A stretch of DNA of 18,256 nucleotides from a virus, in UHGV virus genome UHGV-0117054; one strand, given 5' to 3'. The translations under genes and the position numbers were made by a program. This document shows, in pieces, positions 8,471 to 17,453 of the stretch (the stretch's first letter is position 1; each line of letters begins with the position of its first letter). The notes below the pieces were generated by a model. It saw only the letters and a program-made list of their open reading frames with translations, searched no databases and was not told where the DNA came from.

Positions 8471-8851
8471 ATGTTCAATCCCGATAAATACCGTTCTGTC
8501 GAGTGGCAGAAGGGCGGACGCGCTTACCCCGCGCTGGACTGCTTTGGCATCGTCAATGAAATCAGGCGTGACCTTGGCCTGGCTCCGTGGCCTGATTTTG
8601 CCGGGGTTACGAAGGATGATAACGGCCTCGACCGGGAGGCGCGCGGACTGATGGCTGGCCTGACGCGATGTGAGCCTGCCCCGGGCGCGGGTATCGCCTG
8701 TTATTCAGGCTCTGTGGTGACGCACGTTGCCATCGTTGTTGAGATTGATGGCCAGCTTCGCGCCGCGGAGTGCAATCCCCGCACTAACGTAACCTTCCTG
8801 CCGCTGGCGCGGTTTGCGCGCCGCTTTGTTCGCGTGGAGTATTACCAGTGA
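8471..8851 (+). CDS. NlpC/P60-family tail-associated peptidase (lambda gpK C-terminal-domain-like)
   Basis: 126 aa. ALDCFGIV supplies a candidate catalytic Cys and VTHVAIVV a candidate His, spaced as in NlpC/P60 papain-like folds. It sits immediately upstream of the J-like gene with a GTGA stop/start overlap. Confidence 0.65.
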   Translation: MFNPDKYRSVEWQKGGRAYPALDCFGIVNEIRRDLGLAPWPDFAGVTKDDNGLDREARGLMAGLTRCEPAPGAGIACYSGSVVTHVAIVVEIDGQLRAAECNPRTNVTFLPLARFARRFVRVEYYQ

Positions 8852-11800
8852 CGATCCGAATCTATCCCTCACGCCTGCCCGGCGAGCCGCTGGAAAAGCA
8901 CGAACACGAAACGATGACCCTCAGCGCCTGGTTTGCGCGGAACGTGAAGGACTGGGCACCGGATCAGCAGCATCCGGTTGCGGTTGAAATCGACTGTGTC
9001 CCCGTCCCGGCGTCAGAGTGGCCACTGTGCGTTATCAAACGCGAAACCGACGTCAGGATGTATCCGGTGCCGTACGGTACCGGCGCAGAAATCGCGATCT
9101 GGGTTGCCGTCAGCGTAGCCGTTGCCTCTGCTGCGTACAGCATCTACATGATGAGCACAATGTCTCAGGCTGGCGGCGGCGGTGCCCAGGCGGCCAGCGG
9201 CGACCAGATTGACCTCAACCCGGCAAAAGCGAACGCGGCGAAGCTGGGAGACCCCATCCGTGAAATCTTTGGAAAATATCGCGTCTGGCCTGATTACGTC
9301 GTGCAGCCGGTAAGCCGGTTCGTGAACGAGACCAGCATGGAAACCAGCATGTTCCTGTGCGTGGGTGTCGGCGACATGGTGATTAACCAGTCAGATATCC
9401 GGATCGGTAATACGCCGATCTCCGCGTTTGGTACCGACGTGCGTTACACCCTCTACCCGCCTGGCGCCACGGTATCCGGCGATACGCGCACTGAAAACTG
9501 GTTCAATTCACCAGAGGTCGGGAATACCGGTTCCGGTACTGCCGGGCTGGACCTTGGCTCAAGCGGACCGGAGACGGTCAGCATTATCGCTGATGCGCTG
9601 GTCGTGTCAGGGAACTCCATCACGCTGGTTGACGTATCGTCGTCTGGCGATGAGGAGATCCCGCCGTCGTGGACCGTCGGAACGGTGATCACCGTACTGG
9701 CCCCAAATTCGTATACGGTCGTGTCGTCCGGCGGTTACAGCATGATTTATGGCGGGATAGAGGAACTTGCACCTTATGTAGGCATGCCGGTGACGCTGAA
9801 CTATAACGGCAATGACTACGATCTGGTGATTGCCAGCTATGCCCCGGGCGTTCCGGCAGTGCCGGGGGTGGGTGGGAGTGCCGCAACCATAACTGCCAGC
9901 GCCGCGCCGACCACCTACGACTTTAGCACCGCGCCTGTGACGTTCAGCATCAGCTGGCAGGGCACGACTTACCCGGTATCACTGGTCACCAACTACGTCA
10001 CCATGTCAGGCCTGGTTTCCTCGATCACCTCCCAGCTCGCAGGCTCTGGCCTGGTAGCGCGCGATAACAGTGGGCGGCTTGAAATCGGCGAGGCCAGTAG
10101 CCCATATGCTGGCGGGTCCATCACCAACAGCCCGTTACCCGTTGCTGTTTTCGGTGATGCTCCGGTTAATACGGCAGGCGTGAAATCAACGGGCGGCACG
10201 ACGGAGGTCAGGGCGCACATTACCCTGGCTTACAACAGCGCCACCGGTACGCCATTCACAGGGCTGCCAGAGGGAATTCAGCGCTTTTCTCTGGGGCTTG
10301 CCGGCAATCAGTTCCGGATCACCGATGTGGACAGCCAGACCATCACCGTAGAGCGGTTGACTGTCACCACAGGTCCTGGCGGCGAGACGATCACGACGCC
10401 GGATCCATCGTGGCCTGGCTTCACCGAGCGTACGCTGCTGGATGCGACCGTGACGGGTGTCAGTGACGATTACGAATGGGTTGGCCCGTTCCTGGCCTGC
10501 CCGGACGGCGAAACGCTGGACGCATTCGAGGTGAACATCAACTTCCAGAGCGGCCTGGTGCGTTATACCGATAAAGGTAACAAGCGCTCAATGCCCGTTC
10601 GCCTGGTGATCCAGTATCGCAAAGTTGGAACCACCGCCTGGCAGCAGCAGTCCCCGTTCTATTCCCGCAGTACTGAAAACCAGATCGGCTTTACACATCG
10701 CTACAGCGTGTCGCCTGGTCAGTATGAGATCCGGATGCGCAGAACCGAACCGGTTAAGGGCGGCAGCACGCGTGACCAGGTTTTCTGGCAGGCGCTGCGC
10801 TCCCGGCTGAGCAAGCGACCCACTAAGTACGACGGTGTCACTACCATGGCGCTGACCGTGCGCACTGGTAACCGCCTGGCAGCCATGTCCGATCGCCGTA
10901 TAAGCGTCACGCCAACCCGGCTTTACAGCGGCGGCAGAACTGCACGGAGCATCAGCGGCGCGCTTTACCATGTACTCGAGTCGCTTGGGTTCACGACCAG
11001 CCAGATTGACACAGCGGCGATTGATGCTCTGGAGCAAACATACTGGACGCCCCGCGGTGAGAAATTCGACTGGGCGAGCGGCGAGAGCAAGTCCGCACTC
11101 GAGGTGCTGCAGAAAATCACTAACGCAGGGATGGGGTATTTCCTGCTGTCTGATGGACTGGCGTCTGCCGGCAGGGAAGGCATTAAACCCTGGGTAGGCA
11201 TGATTACCCCGCAGGAAACCACCGAGGAGCTGCAGACTGCCTTTAAAGCCCCATCGCAGGACGATTACGACGGTGTGGACGTGACCTATATCAACGGCAC
11301 CACCTGGGCAGAAGAAACCGTGCAGTGTCGCCTGTCTGGCAACCCAACGCCGTTGAAAATCGAGAGCTACACGCTGGATGGTGTTCTGAATGAAGACCGC
11401 GCCTACCGCATCGGCATGCGCCGGTTGCTGGGCTACCAGTTGCAGCGCCTGCAGCACACCACCTCGACCGAGATGGATGCGCTCTGTTATGAGTTCATGG
11501 ATCGTATTGTGCTGGCAGATGATATCCCCGGCAGCGAGACGCTGAGTTGCCTGATTACCGATATGACGTATGACAGCAGCAAAATCACCATGACGCTTAG
11601 TGAGGCCCCGGACTGGTCGTTCCAAAGCCCGCGCGTGATTATCCGCCATCAGGATGGCAGGGCATCAGCCATGCTGGTACCGACACGCATTGACGACTTC
11701 ACCATCTCGGTGCCGTACAGCGCCGTGTTGGAGCCGGAATTGTGGGCTATGAACGACGCGTACATTGAACCACCGCGCCTGCTGTTCTGCTCATCTGTTC

Positions 11801-11931
11801 GGGTGCCGTATGACGCTCTGGTCGGCGAAATATCACCGGGTAACGATGGGATAAGCCAGGTTACGGCTATTCAGTATCACCCAGGAAAGTACGCCTACGA
11901 CGACGCCACATACCCCGGCGACGCCGCTTAA
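8848..11931 (+). CDS. Host specificity / central tail fiber protein (lambda gpJ-like) with an N-terminal gpI-like region
   Basis: 1027 aa with GTG start. The central region (…SPGQYEIRMRRTEPVKGGSTRDQVFWQALRSRL…) resembles the NIRMRRMTP block of lambda J as I recall it. The first ~170 aa have a small domain, then a hydrophobic helix (AEIAIWVAVSVAVASAAYSIYMM) and a Gly-rich linker, like lambda gpI. Confidence 0.85.
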   Translation: MTIRIYPSRLPGEPLEKHEHETMTLSAWFARNVKDWAPDQQHPVAVEIDCVPVPASEWPLCVIKRETDVRMYPVPYGTGAEIAIWVAVSVAVASAAYSIYMMSTMSQAGGGGAQAASGDQIDLNPAKANAAKLGDPIREIFGKYRVWPDYVVQPVSRFVNETSMETSMFLCVGVGDMVINQSDIRIGNTPISAFGTDVRYTLYPPGATVSGDTRTENWFNSPEVGNTGSGTAGLDLGSSGPETVSIIADALVVSGNSITLVDVSSSGDEEIPPSWTVGTVITVLAPNSYTVVSSGGYSMIYGGIEELAPYVGMPVTLNYNGNDYDLVIASYAPGVPAVPGVGGSAATITASAAPTTYDFSTAPVTFSISWQGTTYPVSLVTNYVTMSGLVSSITSQLAGSGLVARDNSGRLEIGEASSPYAGGSITNSPLPVAVFGDAPVNTAGVKSTGGTTEVRAHITLAYNSATGTPFTGLPEGIQRFSLGLAGNQFRITDVDSQTITVERLTVTTGPGGETITTPDPSWPGFTERTLLDATVTGVSDDYEWVGPFLACPDGETLDAFEVNINFQSGLVRYTDKGNKRSMPVRLVIQYRKVGTTAWQQQSPFYSRSTENQIGFTHRYSVSPGQYEIRMRRTEPVKGGSTRDQVFWQALRSRLSKRPTKYDGVTTMALTVRTGNRLAAMSDRRISVTPTRLYSGGRTARSISGALYHVLESLGFTTSQIDTAAIDALEQTYWTPRGEKFDWASGESKSALEVLQKITNAGMGYFLLSDGLASAGREGIKPWVGMITPQETTEELQTAFKAPSQDDYDGVDVTYINGTTWAEETVQCRLSGNPTPLKIESYTLDGVLNEDRAYRIGMRRLLGYQLQRLQHTTSTEMDALCYEFMDRIVLADDIPGSETLSCLITDMTYDSSKITMTLSEAPDWSFQSPRVIIRHQDGRASAMLVPTRIDDFTISVPYSAVLEPELWAMNDAYIEPPRLLFCSSVRVPYDALVGEISPGNDGISQVTAIQYHPGKYAYDDATYPGDAA

Positions 11932-11950
11932 CCCAAATCAAAATTATCTG

Positions 11951-11973
11951 ACCCGCTTCGGCGGGTTTTTTTA
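11951..11973 (+). terminator. Intrinsic terminator between J-like gene and tailspike gene
   Basis: acccgc-ttcg-gcgggt hairpin followed by tttttttat. The tailspike SD (ggag) follows directly. Confidence 0.55.
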
Positions 11974-11987
11974 TGCCCGGAGCTAGC

Positions 11988-14432
11988 ATGACCACATATG
12001 CCACGAATAACCCGATAGGGTCCATGGATCCGAAGGACCTTTTCGATAACGCCCAGAATCTGGACTTTGCGGTAAACGATATTACCAAAGCCATCTGGAA
12101 GGACCGTTTTGGGAGGGACAGAAAAACATACTGGGGCATGGAGCAGGCCTTTTCAGCTCAACTTCTAAGCCAGAAGCAGATTGGAGAAGCGCAACTTCAG
12201 AACCAAAAGGAAGAGCTGGATGCGCAGTTACTGTCGCAAGAGCAGCGGTTCAGTTATTTCATTATGAACTCTGGCTACAAATTTGTTGGAGAATACACAG
12301 ATGGGCCTCTAACCGTTACTGACTATAACCAGTTGATTCGCTATCAGAATGAGCTTTATAAGTTAAAGGCCGACACAGCGGTTCCATTTACGACAACCGG
12401 CAAGAATGCCACCTCATGGGTCAATGATTTCGCTCATTTTATCAACGTTGCCGATGCGGCATTAAGGCAGCAAATTGGGGATCCTTACGGGGCTGAAAAA
12501 TACCCAGAACTTCAATTGGCACGTTGGCGTGATGAGGGGGACGTTCGTGGCTGGGGAGCCATTGGTGATGGGTTGAATGATGACACTGATGCCATTTTAT
12601 TATGCTTTGCTGATGCTAAATTACGAGGAGGCCGGACAAAAATCAAGTTCCAGCATGGAACCTACCTTGTTCGAGGAACAAGCCTAATAATCGACTTTCC
12701 AAACGTCTTATTAGAGGGAAATTGGGCAAAACTTAGATTGGTCGACAGTCCGACAGTAATTCAGGGGCCAGTTCTAAAGGTTGCGCAATATGGCAACACG
12801 TCTGTTCGAGGCACGGTAGAAAATGTAACCATCAAAAACCTTGAAATTGATGGCAACAAGCTGAACCAGGTCCAAACCATGAACACGGGAGGGGATGCGA
12901 ACAATCCAGGCTTTGTATCAGAAGACGTGGTGAATCTGCATGTAGAAAATGTTATCTCCCGTAACTGTGACGGATACGGATTTCTCTTCGCTGGCTCTAA
13001 TCTTCCACACCGTAAAGGCGCTTACTTCAAAAACTGCTGGGCACACGGCAACAACGTCGACGGTTTTGACATCAAGGCTGGTTTCAATCATGTCACCCTA
13101 GATAGCTGTCGTTCATGGGATAATGGCTATGCGCCGATGGTTGAACTTCGCTCCGGCATGGGTATCGACATTCGCGGCAAGAACGTCACTCTCCTGAACT
13201 GTGTGGCAGGTGACGAAGGTAGTAATTACGCAGGTAACTTCCGTATCCGTGAAAATGCTCAGGCTGGCATCTCGCTGTTTGGTTGCCACAGCCACAATAG
13301 CCCGGATGGTACTTATGGTTTTATGTGCATTGGTGGTGGTAATACAAATATTTCCTTAGTTAGCTGCACATCCACCAACGATGGCACGTCACTGAAGCAT
13401 GAGCGTGGACATGTCACAGCAGTGGGATTCCGGTCATGGAAACCTCGGCTATTAAGTGTGCTGCAATACCCTTCTCAATTTGTGTTGAGCACACTGACGG
13501 CAGCAGCCACGTTTACTGCCTTTGGTGTATCAGTAACCATTCTCCCGAGCGATTATCTTAGTGCAACCGTGGGGTCTGAAATCAAGATCCCTACTAACAC
13601 CGGTACGATTTACCTACTGGTGAACGAGGCAGTTTCATCGACGCTGGTGTGCACGGTGCTGCGCGGAAATCTGGGGACGGCTGCGGTGGGCGCAAGCATC
13701 ACCACGGTATCGACAGGCAGCCTGACCATAGATGGCGGTATTTCTTATCAGTCTGCCAGCGACGCCATGCAGTTTGCCTCTACGTTACAGACTCTGACGG
13801 ACAGCTCGATGCCAGTAACCATAAATGGCTTTATCATAGAGGCACCAATCCGCTACGGGGTGAACTTCCAGGGTGGTGATGTGAGTTTCTTTGGCGGCGC
13901 AATTCGTAACTGTGGCAAAGGGTCATCCTCCCCTGGATTTTTCGTCGGCAATGCGGCTACTGCTGAATCAACATTCCGGTTGGACAGCGTATTCATGGGG
14001 AATGATGACAAATCATTCACGCAGTCAGCCGGCCTTCAGTTCCAGTCAACAAGCCTGGCGAAAGGGAGCGTTAGAGCGTGTAAATTCGCCGATAATGCCA
14101 ACTCGCCAGTCATTGGCTCGCCATCTTCTGGTGTGCGGTTTGCAGACAATATCGGCTACACCAACGAGGGTACATTCTCTACAACAATTGATGTGACAAC
14201 TGTTGGGGTGAAAACATTCTCAATTCCGCATGGGCTAAGCAAAGCACCTTCTGGTAAAGATGTGCAACTGACCATCCAGCGGTCTGGGGCGGCGAATGAC
14301 TACGTTCTCTCCACTCCGATGATTACCGGAGCAAGCTCTACAATTATTTCTGGAAGGGTGTCCGTACTCACGGCTAGCGCAACCACAGGTGAAGCCGCAA
14401 CAGTAAACGCATTCATCAGCGCCAACCCATAG
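11988..14432 (+). CDS. Tailspike / receptor-binding protein with pectate-lyase-like parallel beta-helix (putative polysaccharide depolymerase); start ATG 11988 preferred over 11973
   Basis: GDVRGWGAIGDGLNDDTDAI matches the GAxGDGxTDDTxAI signature that opens the beta-helix in phage depolymerases. Asn/Gly-rich beta-helix rungs follow (NCDGYGFLFAGSN, NCWAHGNNVDGFDIKAGFN, GKNVTLLNCVAGDEGSNYAGNF, CTSTNDGT). ggag lies 6 nt upstream of ATG 11988. GC is intermediate. Confidence 0.8.
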   Translation: MTTYATNNPIGSMDPKDLFDNAQNLDFAVNDITKAIWKDRFGRDRKTYWGMEQAFSAQLLSQKQIGEAQLQNQKEELDAQLLSQEQRFSYFIMNSGYKFVGEYTDGPLTVTDYNQLIRYQNELYKLKADTAVPFTTTGKNATSWVNDFAHFINVADAALRQQIGDPYGAEKYPELQLARWRDEGDVRGWGAIGDGLNDDTDAILLCFADAKLRGGRTKIKFQHGTYLVRGTSLIIDFPNVLLEGNWAKLRLVDSPTVIQGPVLKVAQYGNTSVRGTVENVTIKNLEIDGNKLNQVQTMNTGGDANNPGFVSEDVVNLHVENVISRNCDGYGFLFAGSNLPHRKGAYFKNCWAHGNNVDGFDIKAGFNHVTLDSCRSWDNGYAPMVELRSGMGIDIRGKNVTLLNCVAGDEGSNYAGNFRIRENAQAGISLFGCHSHNSPDGTYGFMCIGGGNTNISLVSCTSTNDGTSLKHERGHVTAVGFRSWKPRLLSVLQYPSQFVLSTLTAAATFTAFGVSVTILPSDYLSATVGSEIKIPTNTGTIYLLVNEAVSSTLVCTVLRGNLGTAAVGASITTVSTGSLTIDGGISYQSASDAMQFASTLQTLTDSSMPVTINGFIIEAPIRYGVNFQGGDVSFFGGAIRNCGKGSSSPGFFVGNAATAESTFRLDSVFMGNDDKSFTQSAGLQFQSTSLAKGSVRACKFADNANSPVIGSPSSGVRFADNIGYTNEGTFSTTIDVTTVGVKTFSIPHGLSKAPSGKDVQLTIQRSGAANDYVLSTPMITGASSTIISGRVSVLTASATTGEAATVNAFISANP

Positions 14433-14539
14433 GGCTCAGGAGGAAGTGGAACGAGATCGAACCAGCGCAGGAAAAGCTGGTAGCTGATTCATATGTTGTG
14501 GGTGAAAAATACGGAATCAGATGCAAGGAGGCTTTAGTG

Positions 14540-14632
14540 ATGGAGGCTACTCTTCATCGCCGTAATCATCAAAGGTTACTGTCGCAGTTTGAGGCTCTGG
14601 CTGAACGAGTGGGAAATCTAGAAGCAAAGTAG
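14540..14632 (+). CDS. Possible 30-aa small ORF with strong RBS (may be a remnant)
   Basis: aaggagg sits 8 nt upstream of the ATG. Translation MEATLHRRNHQRLLSQFEALAERVGNLEAK. No other support. Confidence 0.2.
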   Translation: MEATLHRRNHQRLLSQFEALAERVGNLEAK

Positions 14633-14796
14633 CTTTCTGATGCACTAATCGTCAATCCTACCCAAACAGAGAGGGTGCTTTCGCTACGTCATATTCGCAT
14701 CTTTTGGTGGCGCAAGAGCACCCTCAATCCTGCATTTGTAAAATTCACTACTGATATCAAAATTAGTGGTTAGACCCCAAAACCACACACAAATCA

Positions 14797-14825
14797 TTGA
14801 CCCGTCCCAGCAAGTATTGCACAAT
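14797..14825 (+). promoter_or_regulatory. Candidate sigma70 promoter for the AsnB-like cargo gene
   Basis: TTGACC, a 17-nt spacer, then CACAAT, about 70 nt upstream of the ATG at 14898, in an AT-rich intergenic region. Confidence 0.3.
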
Positions 14826-14897
14826 CTTGGTTGTTTACTCTGTTAACCAAATAGTTATCAACTTTAAATATTGCCAATTATCTTGCGCGGGAATTAA

Positions 14898-16727
14898 ATG
14901 ATAAACTTTATTGTTTTAAATGGAAAAAGCGAGTCTGTTAAGAAATTATACGAGACAGCGCAGCAGGCCCTAAAAAGGAACTTAACATTTAAGCCAGTAG
15001 AGGTGGCTAATAAAATATCTGGTAGCGGAGCTTGGGCATATACAGCATGTGGCAATGCGGAAGGCGAAATATCAAAAAGAATAACATCTAAGCAAAGCGG
15101 CGTATGCCTGATAAATGGCCCTGTTTTAAGGATGTGTGATAGCTATGATGTCTCAGATGCCGCACTTGATGCCTCCACCAAAAACGATGCGGAATACATG
15201 TTTGACAATATTTCCGGGTCTTACAACTTCGTTTCAATAACCTCTAAGAATGGCCTCCTTGCTTTCGGCGATTTCTCAGGCACCTGTCCTATTTATTACA
15301 CAATAATTGATGGCGTAACTTGCGTAAGTAACCGGGCATCTGCATTGCATGAACTGCGCGGGAATAGTAAATATAATATTTCTTCTTTGAGCTGGTTAAT
15401 TGGGCATGCCAATATATTTGGCAATGAGTCACCTTTTGAATGCGTGTATTCAATTACAGCTGGTAGCTATTTAAAGTCACCACTTGGTTCAACAACAGTA
15501 AACATCAATAAATTTAAGAATCAGATATGGCCTTCAAATGACGATGCTCAGTATCTGAACGACCTCTCAGGTGATGATTGGGATTTGATAGTAGATGAGT
15601 TGGTGAAAAACTTTAAGGCTGCAAGTGAAAACATTCCCGGCGAACTCCGTTTATCACTCACCGGTGGTAAGGACTCTCGCCTTGTCCTTGCGCTGGCATT
15701 GGGTGCAGGATTCAAAGACAGGATCACCACATTTACGAACGGCCCGGAAGGCAGCCCAGAGATAAGCTGTGCACAGAACATCGCCAACAAAATCGGCGTT
15801 AAGCACGTCGCTAACGTTAAGGCTCCACAAGTTAAAGCTCAGGATTTTGCTAATTCATGGGAAAAACTTAACTGGCATTCCTACAGAATGGAAAGTTATA
15901 TTTGCCCATGGGATGGAGCAACAGCTGAACGCACCATCAAAAATATAACGTCCGATATGACTGGCTTTGGCGGCGAGCTATATCGCGGACCCGGCGGACA
16001 CGCCAAGCAGTTTAAAAACCTGTCCTTTATGGACAATAAAGATGCAATTCTTTCTAAGTTCATAAACTACCATCAGAAGATGGATCCATTAAACATTCTC
16101 TCCAGTTTGTATAAAAACGCTCAAATAGGTTGGTTCTACGGCTGGCTTGAGGAGAATATTAAATCTGTAAGGTTTGATGTTTTACCTGAGAAGTTCTTCG
16201 TAGAAAACCGTCTTTCCAATTGGAACGGCCCTCTTGCTCAGAACGTCACAGGCAGAATTAAACTGATGCCACTTCTCTCTCCTAAAGTTGCGCGTTTGGT
16301 ATTCAAGCTCAGCCCGGAGGCCAGGAACAAAGAATTGTTCCACTACAGCGTCATGGCAAAGCTGGCTCCTGAATTAGTTTCTCTGCCATTTTTGAATGCG
16401 ACATGGGATAAATCATTGCAGGGTAGATTTGGCCTTGATATCGCAGATGCTCCTTATGATAGCGGGGTTAAATTCACGCCAAGGTCTGTGCAAGCATGGC
16501 AGGCTCAATTTGTCGAAGGTCAGCGAGAAGAAATCGTGCACTTGCTTGAAAGAGCCGCCGAATATACAAACATCAGAGAGATATTTGACGTCGATAAATT
16601 ATGCGAGTACGTCCGGGAAAAGGAAGGGATGAACACCATAGAAATCAAAACTATCCTCTCCTCAATTGCTGTTGCCATTACCTTGCTGAATGATCAGGAA
16701 AGCGTAGAGGACCTTGGCCAGGTGTAA
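14898..16727 (+). CDS. Asparagine synthetase (AsnB) family amidoligase-like protein; N-terminal domain lacks the Cys nucleophile
   Basis: 609 aa. PP-loop SLTGGKDS at residues ~254-260 (AsnB has SGGLDS near 234-239). TGFGGELYRG matches the AsnB GEGxDExFGGY block and GRIKLMPLLSP the E-x-R-x-PFLD block. FGDFSGTCPIYY matches the RDxxGxKPLYY motif of the N-terminal domain. It starts MINF…, not MC…. GC is about 38-40%. Confidence 0.75.
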   Translation: MINFIVLNGKSESVKKLYETAQQALKRNLTFKPVEVANKISGSGAWAYTACGNAEGEISKRITSKQSGVCLINGPVLRMCDSYDVSDAALDASTKNDAEYMFDNISGSYNFVSITSKNGLLAFGDFSGTCPIYYTIIDGVTCVSNRASALHELRGNSKYNISSLSWLIGHANIFGNESPFECVYSITAGSYLKSPLGSTTVNINKFKNQIWPSNDDAQYLNDLSGDDWDLIVDELVKNFKAASENIPGELRLSLTGGKDSRLVLALALGAGFKDRITTFTNGPEGSPEISCAQNIANKIGVKHVANVKAPQVKAQDFANSWEKLNWHSYRMESYICPWDGATAERTIKNITSDMTGFGGELYRGPGGHAKQFKNLSFMDNKDAILSKFINYHQKMDPLNILSSLYKNAQIGWFYGWLEENIKSVRFDVLPEKFFVENRLSNWNGPLAQNVTGRIKLMPLLSPKVARLVFKLSPEARNKELFHYSVMAKLAPELVSLPFLNATWDKSLQGRFGLDIADAPYDSGVKFTPRSVQAWQAQFVEGQREEIVHLLERAAEYTNIREIFDVDKLCEYVREKEGMNTIEIKTILSSIAVAITLLNDQESVEDLGQV

Positions 16728-16761
16728 CGCCAGCCGGGATTATTGATAGGTATCGCCTCAT

Positions 16762-16819
16762 TGATCTGCACCTCCTTTAAAACTACTGTATATAAAAACA
16801 GTAAAAGGAGTGCAGATCA
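16762..16819. repeat. Inverted repeat bracketing the SOS box and the start of the downstream ORF
   Basis: tgatctgcac at 16762-16771 and its reverse complement gtgcagatca at 16810-16819, extended by tcc/gga with a one-base bulge. The arms flank the LexA box, and the right arm overlaps the GTG at 16810. Confidence 0.4.
16784..16803. promoter_or_regulatory. LexA operator (SOS box) in an AT-rich promoter region
   Basis: TACTGTATATAAAAACAGTA is a perfect CTGT-N8-ACAG palindrome with an AT-only spacer. From memory it matches the strong E. coli umuDC operator. It lies directly upstream of the 16810 and 17058 ORFs. Confidence 0.7.
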
Positions 16820-17058
16820 TACCCCGCCAATCAGACATTCACAGCGCATTTGTCGCTGCAGTACAGCAAAACCCAAAGGGTTATCAGTGCCTTCATACGA
16901 ACGACTTCATCCGTGAGTTGCGCGCGAGAAACTGGCATTTCAGCCAGGTCGACGCCAACGAGTGGATCCAGCGCTATCAAGAGTTCTTTGTCGACAAGAC
17001 GCCTGACCACAGTGAAAACCGTCTCTGGATGCTACGTAACATGGGGAGGGTTCTGTAA
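16810..17058 (+). CDS. Hypothetical 82-aa protein, first ORF downstream of the SOS box (start uncertain)
   Basis: GTG start with the SD too close (aaaaggag immediately before it). Its stop overlaps the ATG of the UmuD'-like gene (TAATG). No recognisable motifs. Confidence 0.3.
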   Translation: MQIIPRQSDIHSAFVAAVQQNPKGYQCLHTNDFIRELRARNWHFSQVDANEWIQRYQEFFVDKTPDHSENRLWMLRNMGRVL

Positions 17059-17453
17059 TGGGCTTCCCTTCGCCGGCTGGCGACTATGTAGAGCAGCGGT
17101 TAACTCCGGAGCGAATCTGCGGTGTTGGCGTCGACACTCGCATCCTGGAAACCTCATCCGGCTTTGCCGTTATCGAGCCGTGCACCAGGCTGGTACAGAA
17201 TCAGGTTCTGCTGATTTTATCTGGCGGCAGAACGCAGTTTGCCCGGGTAATGGGTAGGGCATTAATCACTGATGATGGTGAAGCGATCGAAGGGGAGGAG
17301 GCGGAGGAAGTTGAGGTGCTGGGGCGCGTGACGTTCTTCATCAACAGCGCGCTACAGGATGACAGGGTGGGTGATGGGTGGCATTACGCCACCTTTTCAT
17401 CAAGCCAGTCCGCCCACCACTGCATCATTTCTCTGCGCTTATCGAGATACTGA
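17058..17453 (+). CDS. UmuD'-like (peptidase S24-fold) protein, natively leaderless and likely catalytically degenerate
   Basis: N-terminus MGFPSPAGDYVEQR matches the UmuD segment right after the Cys24-Gly25 cleavage site (CGFPSPAADYVEQR), so the ORF begins where processed UmuD' begins. An in-frame stop lies 18 nt upstream. The SGDSM serine motif and the catalytic KK region are not recognisable. GGAGG sits 7 nt before the ATG. The last ~23 codons overlap the integrase 3' end. Confidence 0.6.
   Translation: MGFPSPAGDYVEQRLTPERICGVGVDTRILETSSGFAVIEPCTRLVQNQVLLILSGGRTQFARVMGRALITDDGEAIEGEEAEEVEVLGRVTFFINSALQDDRVGDGWHYATFSSSQSAHHCIISLRLSRY
17377..17398 (+). terminator. Hairpin plus T-tract at the convergent junction with the integrase (possible + strand terminator)
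   Basis: ggtggc-attac-gccacc stem-loop followed by tttt. It lies inside the C-terminal extension of the UmuD'-like ORF and over the integrase stop codon. Confidence 0.35.

Follow-up and report, generated by a model that had tools for sequence, protein, structure and literature searches.

We asked whether the gene at positions 11988-14432 of a viral genome (UHGV-0117054; the whole stretch analysed, 18,256 nt, is called the window here) encodes a polysaccharide-degrading tailspike, as a first-pass annotation of the sequence had proposed, and whether its receptor-binding part is exchanged between phages. Swapping of receptor-binding parts is a well-known way in which phages change hosts; such modules decide which strains can be infected, and they are what is re-engineered for phage therapy and diagnostics. 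Our answer is that the gene very probably specifies the tailspike, or receptor-binding protein, of a lambda-like E. coli prophage, in which an anchor from the phage backbone is joined to a swapped-in, putatively glycan-cleaving module.

The tail genes run tape measure, DUF1833, TipJ (8848-11931), tailspike, the last lying directly 3' of the TipJ gene, and the IntS-type integrase of the prophage is 97-98% identical in nucleotide sequence to those of HK620, Sf6 and CUS-3. The following elements mark its beginning:

11950-11972, plus strand: intrinsic-terminator-like hairpin between tipJ and the tailspike gene (scan, folding and conservation)
11973-14432, plus strand: tailspike open reading frame; with the likely start at ATG 11988 the gene is 11988-14432, 814 aa
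11979-11990, plus strand: ribosome-binding site (GGAG, 11979-11982) and start (ATG 11988) of the 814-aa tailspike

The ATG at 11988 is the likely start; the alternative in-frame ATG at 11973 overlaps the U-tract of the hairpin and is used by only one database entry, of 819 aa. In a database comparison the 814-aa product was identical to an E. coli "hypothetical protein" (P0001), whose cluster has 33 members, all from E. coli or metagenomes. The GC content of the gene (0.492) is indeed intermediate between that of tipJ (0.592) and that of the downstream AsnB-like gene (0.433). The hairpin (GACCCGC-UUCG-GCGGGUU, a 7-bp stem with a UUCG loop followed by U7; -12.2 kcal/mol) is conserved in seven related loci, six close relatives (L001-L006) and the diverged prophage L010, while the GGAG stretch that follows it is conserved in the six and differs in L010. 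The terminator-RBS junction that the first-pass annotation had linked to horizontal swapping is therefore present and belongs to the conserved backbone, apart from the different ribosome-binding site in L010, but it is not the site of exchange: because backbone homology runs for ∼480 nt into the gene, the junction cannot be the breakpoint, and the crossovers lie inside the gene and just after its stop.

Where, then, does the backbone part of the protein end? The N-terminal region consists of these parts:

11988-12452, plus strand: N-terminal anchor, aa 1-155 (PHROG, tblastn and alignments to sister prophages)
12174-12242, plus strand: helical insertion of ∼22 aa (KQIGEAQLQNQKEELDAQLLSQE) in the anchor (alignments)
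12432-12590, plus strand: cross-genus linker motif, aa 149-201 (...GDAALRQQIGDPYGAEKYPELQLARWRDEGDVRGWGAxGDG...)

The anchor is the backbone part, which docks the spike to the TipJ tail tip. PHROG matches over aa 1-170 are to tail-fibre anchors, and the N-terminal 150-170 aa match tail-fibre or tailspike anchors only; likewise, tblastn matches to receptor-binding proteins of Klebsiella and Pseudomonas siphoviruses are limited to aa 1-170/230. Over ∼aa 1-150 the anchor is 65-73% identical in amino acid sequence to the proteins of L001, L002, L003 and L006 and 73% identical to that of L010, and the C-termini of the sister-prophage proteins that share it are unrelated to the C-terminus of the tailspike. 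The anchor is itself a mosaic, with ∼89% nucleotide identity to sister prophages up to ∼12112-12179 and 67-84% beyond, and its helical insertion, which L010 and P0006 also have, is missing from L001-L006. The 53-aa linker joins anchors to many different receptor-binding domains. A tblastn search detected it in 136 phage records, among them K1F, Kayfunavirus, Kagunavirus, phi92, a K5 lyase, Ackermannviridae and also Justusliebigvirus; it also occurs in the tail spike of PDB entry 9vvr and, with other C-termini, in P0006 and P0013.

Beyond the linker, the relatives are of a different kind. The same module (84-92% amino acid identity) is joined to different anchors in a Gamaleyavirus (L007, with a PF18668 anchor; 91%), two Ackermannviridae contigs (L008 and L012; 84%) and a BUCT618-like myovirus (L009; 84%), and the diverged prophage L010 carries a copy that is 82% identical. 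In six sister prophages with a TipJ that is 95-97% identical, the same slot holds S74 fibres or SGNH/GDSL esterases instead. The module is thus demonstrably the receptor-binding part that is exchanged between four anchors and phage types, and the suggestion that it is exchangeable is borne out both by these carriers and by the other receptor-binding proteins in the slot of the sister prophages. It has moved between phages of enterobacteria that differ in type: a temperate siphovirus, an N4-like podovirus, Ackermannviridae and a small myovirus. In megablast and tblastn searches of isolated phages only the anchor, the linker and the junction were matched, never the module, and complete RefSeq E. 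coli genomes gave no match to 12560-16727. Carrier assemblies include GCA_009681335.1, GCA_017159615.1, GCA_038400195.1, GCA_023953085.1, GCA_044384365.1, GCA_027677965.1 and GCA_012469555.1. The receptor-binding domain family is annotated as "hypothetical protein" and forms five clusters among 5.8 billion proteins; the locus flags a rare, unannotated and putative depolymerase family related to the AlgE epimerase/lyases.

Alignment with these relatives placed the recombination breakpoints that the first-pass annotation had suggested looking for:

12453-12470, plus strand: 5' crossover zone, codons D156-Q161, DAALRQ (pairwise alignments and HSP ends)
14433-14446, plus strand: 3' junction, from the tailspike stop to the S74 remnant (alignments)
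14447-14631, plus strand: S74 remnant of 61 codons, out of frame (WNEIEPAQEKLVADSYVVGEKYGIRCKEALVMEATLHRRNHQRLL...; tblastn and collinearity)
14671-14725, plus strand: long hairpin without a U-tract, 3' of the module (-27.8 kcal/mol, z -3.3)
16741-17453, plus strand: resumption of the backbone, with two small conserved open reading frames (16810-17058 and 17058-17453) common to L001-L006 (blastn and tblastn)

The stretch 12453-12470 is the only one common to the backbone relatives (L019, L001) and a module carrier (L007), which puts the 5' crossover within the gene, at aa 156-161, instead of at the terminator-RBS junction upstream. The 3' breakpoint lies at 14433-14446, possibly extending to ∼14510; the same junction is found in the Ackermannviridae contigs L008 and L012 and is truncated in the Gamaleyavirus L007. 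Within the tailspike protein Pfam found no S74 domain, which is represented solely by the out-of-frame remnant downstream. This remnant matches the 3' ends of the fibre genes of L001, L002 and L006 and also L008, L012 and L011 (tblastn), and lines up collinearly with the final ∼175 nt (∼58 codons) of the L019 fibre gene, which is intact; it is the scar of a displaced tail-fibre gene. The long hairpin is shared with the Gamaleyavirus, as 14671-14723 matches L007 by blastn. In L008 a fragment of the prophage open reading frame 16810-17058 adjoins a second tailspike. We propose that the module entered the prophage lineage by double recombination. One crossover would lie in the linker motif that many phages share (DAALRQ, 12453-12470); the other would have hit a resident tail-fibre gene of S74 type, at its 3' end or inside that end, and the last ∼61 codons of this gene survive as the scar. 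The locus is a cleanly mapped natural swap, with breakpoints defined to ∼20 nt and the scar of the displaced gene kept; as such it is a clear but ordinary example, which leaves the current view of tailspike evolution unchanged.

Does the exchanged unit include the AsnB-like gene downstream, with which the tailspike had been thought to pair? Two features are relevant:

14797-14825, plus strand: sigma-70-like promoter of the AsnB-like gene, TTGACC-17-CACAAT (consensus match; conserved in L010)
14898-16727, plus strand: AsnB-like gene, 609 aa, GC 0.433, with a PP-loop SLTGGKDS at aa 253-260

Where the AsnB family has the PP-loop motif SGGxDS, the protein reads SLTGGKDS, and it scores 20.6 bits against the 21 required for Pfam Asn_synthase and 36.9 against 267 for TIGR01536. 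It begins MINFIV..., lacking the N-terminal Cys nucleophile of a class II glutaminase (Cys2), and its matches in the PDB are marginal, the best being CarA at E 0.29. No PADLOC model matched the gene, no match was found in phage records, and GTDB representative genomes contain one fragmentary locus. The copy in L011 carries an in-frame stop. In the Leclercia prophages L019 and L020 a 96.9%-identical AsnB-like gene stands behind an intact, unrelated S74 fibre gene, and the window is collinear with the L019 locus from 14459 to 17385. Because the Leclercia copy follows an S74 fibre and the collinearity runs across the scar, the AsnB-like gene belongs to the variable slot, not to the swapped module, and predates the swap. 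These loci rule out a strict linkage of module and AsnB-like gene, and so speak against the proposed pairing.

A functional pair could nevertheless exist, in which the AsnB-like enzyme would amidate a carboxylate of the receptor glycan, such as that of a uronic acid, and thereby stop spikes of this type from binding or cleaving it; the result would be seroconversion with superinfection exclusion. We consider this unlikely, even though several observations are in its favour. In sister prophages, genes of recognised O-antigen-modifying types occupy the slot that runs from the receptor-binding gene to the attachment end (L001 has an acyltransferase there, L002 and L004 have GT2 glycosyltransferases); the exact pair was present in all 8 places inspected, at three chromosomal sites, and L010 has a co-diverged pair, with 82% amino acid identity for both proteins. 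Moreover, the four virulent-type contigs with the module have no AsnB-like gene, the gene has a low GC content and its own conserved promoter-like site, and PP-loop chemistry activates carboxylates while the nearest relatives of the spike act on uronates. Yet the Leclercia copy behind an unrelated fibre shows that the gene is not specific to the module, the co-occurrence in E. coli may reflect the recent spread of one block, the protein is without the Cys2 nucleophile and falls far below the AsnB family cut-offs, and we found no precedent in the literature for O-antigen amidation by a prophage AsnB-type enzyme. A more elaborate scenario, and a reading related to it, are quite improbable. In the scenario the AsnB-like enzyme would be a new kind of lysogenic-conversion factor that amidates uronates of the receptor glycan and disarms an AlgE-like, lyase-type spike, since a lyase needs the free carboxylate, and receptor-binding domain and AsnB-like gene would have become associated twice (in the lineage of the window and in L010) for that reason. 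In the related reading, the S74 scar 3' of the module and the prophage fragment beside the second tailspike of L008 would together show that resident prophages are a source from which virulent phages of the Ackermannviridae and Gamaleyavirus take their receptor-binding modules. 

We return to the reading of the gene as a tailspike with a swapped-in module and ask whether this module could cleave a glycan. Its predicted parts are as follows:

12543-14165, plus strand: right-handed parallel beta-helix, aa ∼186-726 (predicted structure)
12975-13175, plus strand: candidate active-site codons on three successive rungs (conservation across homologues)
14166-14429, plus strand: C-terminal beta-sandwich, aa ∼727-814 (secondary structure of the model)

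An AF2 monomer model of aa 151-814, built on 51 sequences, reached a pLDDT of 91.5 and a pTM of 0.87 and is clearly a beta-helix, so that the structure prediction by which the first-pass annotation had wished its fold to be checked agrees with it. A full-length AF2 model from a 10-sequence alignment (pLDDT 52, <35 in the C-terminal half) was set aside. DSSP suggests an inserted beta-domain at approximately aa 530-600, and the C-terminal domain of ∼100 aa (matches to query 515-627) recurs at the C-terminal end of many proteins that are otherwise different. Residues 186-480 contain 9.8% Asn and 13.6% Gly, in line with the Asn/Gly-rich rungs noted earlier. Comparison with known depolymerase tailspikes gave Foldseek matches to HK620, Sf6, LKA1 and CBA120 and also to phi29 gp12, with TM 0.4-0.5 to HK620 and Sf6; fold, anchor and position after TipJ thus agree in pointing to a beta-helix tailspike. 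At the level of the single sequence all Pfam matches were below the gathering threshold (PF13229, 24.2 against 25.9 bits; PF12708, 22.8 against 27 bits), and a PDB sequence search gave no significant match to the catalytic domain. The sub-threshold likeness to Beta_helix and Pect-lyase_RHGA_epim is nevertheless real. The family profile of 51 sequences matched AlgE6 with E 8e-45 and AlgE4 with E 5e-44. A further profile-based homologue search did not recover distant representatives and added little.

The candidate active site comprises Y330 (codon at 12975), R342 (13011), D358 (13059), D361 (13068), K363 (13074), D394 (13167) and R396 (13173). Six of these residues are at least 90% conserved among 51 homologues of 20-30% identity, the exception being R342, which is present in the majority only. 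The catalytic residues of AlgE are Tyr149, Asp152, His154 and Asp178 (PMC7385640). In the alignment to AlgE4, the catalytic Y149 corresponds to Y330, and the other three are not conserved: D152 aligns to L339, D178 is unaligned or, in the profile alignment, falls on K363, and H154 can be matched to H341 only across an insertion of 6 aa, H341 not being conserved in the family. Compared with an AlgE-type A-module, the tailspike has the fold and homology at profile level and lacks the catalytic residue set. As the tetrad is incomplete, the cleavage chemistry cannot be read by homology; the Tyr/Asp/Lys/Arg cluster on three rungs may well be catalytic, and it is from the fold and these conserved residues only that we infer polysaccharide degradation.

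The incomplete tetrad, together with the beta-helix adhesins such as PfbA among the structural matches, could also mean that the module is a non-catalytic adhesin that binds a glycan or protein receptor. We give this a low probability, as the Tyr/Asp/Lys/Arg cluster occupies the place of the active site in AlgE4 and is conserved to at least 90% among the 51 distant homologues, and most of the beta-helix tailspikes studied so far are enzymes. The K1 lyase is an example (PMC8822698). That the module instead modifies polysaccharide without depolymerising it, as a C5-epimerase like AlgE4, is highly improbable even though structure and profile comparisons both match it best to mannuronan C5-epimerases: the epimerase-site residues D152, H154 and D178 are not conserved, the AlgE R-modules are absent, an epimerase would be of no obvious help to a virion crossing a glycan layer, and bifunctional AlgE7-type enzymes show that lyase activity is possible on the same scaffold (PMC7385640).

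Residues ∼156-814 would therefore form, on the favoured reading of a glycan-cleaving tailspike, a self-contained receptor-binding and putative enzymatic module. By analogy with solved tailspikes the spike is most likely trimeric, and the trimer would bind and cleave a host surface polysaccharide (O-antigen or capsule); this would give the virion access to the outer membrane and thereby determine the host range. A lyase acting on an acidic, uronic-acid-containing glycan is slightly favoured over a hydrolase, because the module is most closely related to AlgE-type uronate epimerase/lyases and to phage K1 capsule lyases.

Finally, we asked how this tailspike compares with known systems. With the O-antigen endoglycosidases of P22, Sf6 and HK620 it shares the beta-helix fold, the lysogenic-conversion slot and the IntS-type integrase, whereas its anchor is different, with no P22-type head-binding domain, its virion is that of a siphovirus, its catalytic part has no significant sequence similarity to theirs and the acidic pairs of these hydrolases cannot be mapped onto it. 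It differs from the AlgE4 and AlgE6 A-modules and the epimerase/lyase 8ja4 in that D152 and D178 are not conserved and H154 is at best doubtfully conserved, in having no R-modules, and in being a structural protein of a phage that is longer by ∼300 aa of helix and a beta-sandwich. Identity to the capsule lyases, the K1 lyase of NTUH-K2044-K1-1 (7w1c), K64-1 S2-4 (9k4a) and KflA (2x3h), is ∼11%, and the module may instead be a hydrolase. Polysaccharide-lyase tailspikes such as the K1 and K5 lyases are marked by a Tyr/His Bronsted pair with an Arg neutraliser in the groove and by unsaturated products. The Peptidase_S74 fibres of L001, L002, L006 and L019 have the same anchor, slot and linker, while the tailspike lacks their S74 domain, of which the 61-codon out-of-frame remnant lies downstream. 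The exchange of receptor-binding domains across exactly these E. coli phage genera at conserved flanking motifs has been described by Pas et al. 2023 (PMC10408124), who reported the motifs for lytic genera but none for the temperate Uetake- and Lederbergviruses. In our locus the crossover maps within the 53-aa linker, which occurs in phage records of the same genera and may correspond to their motifs 1-2 (44/95-nt logos). Like the modular coliphage tailspikes of that study, and like the K1F, K1-5 and phi92 endosialidase and K5 lyase systems, the tailspike combines a genus-specific anchor with a transferable C-terminal receptor-binding domain, here common to Gamaleyavirus and Ackermannviridae contigs, and has a conserved linker at the border between the two. 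The junction used is the same linker that lytic coliphages use, whereas the carrier is a temperate lambda-like siphovirus prophage.

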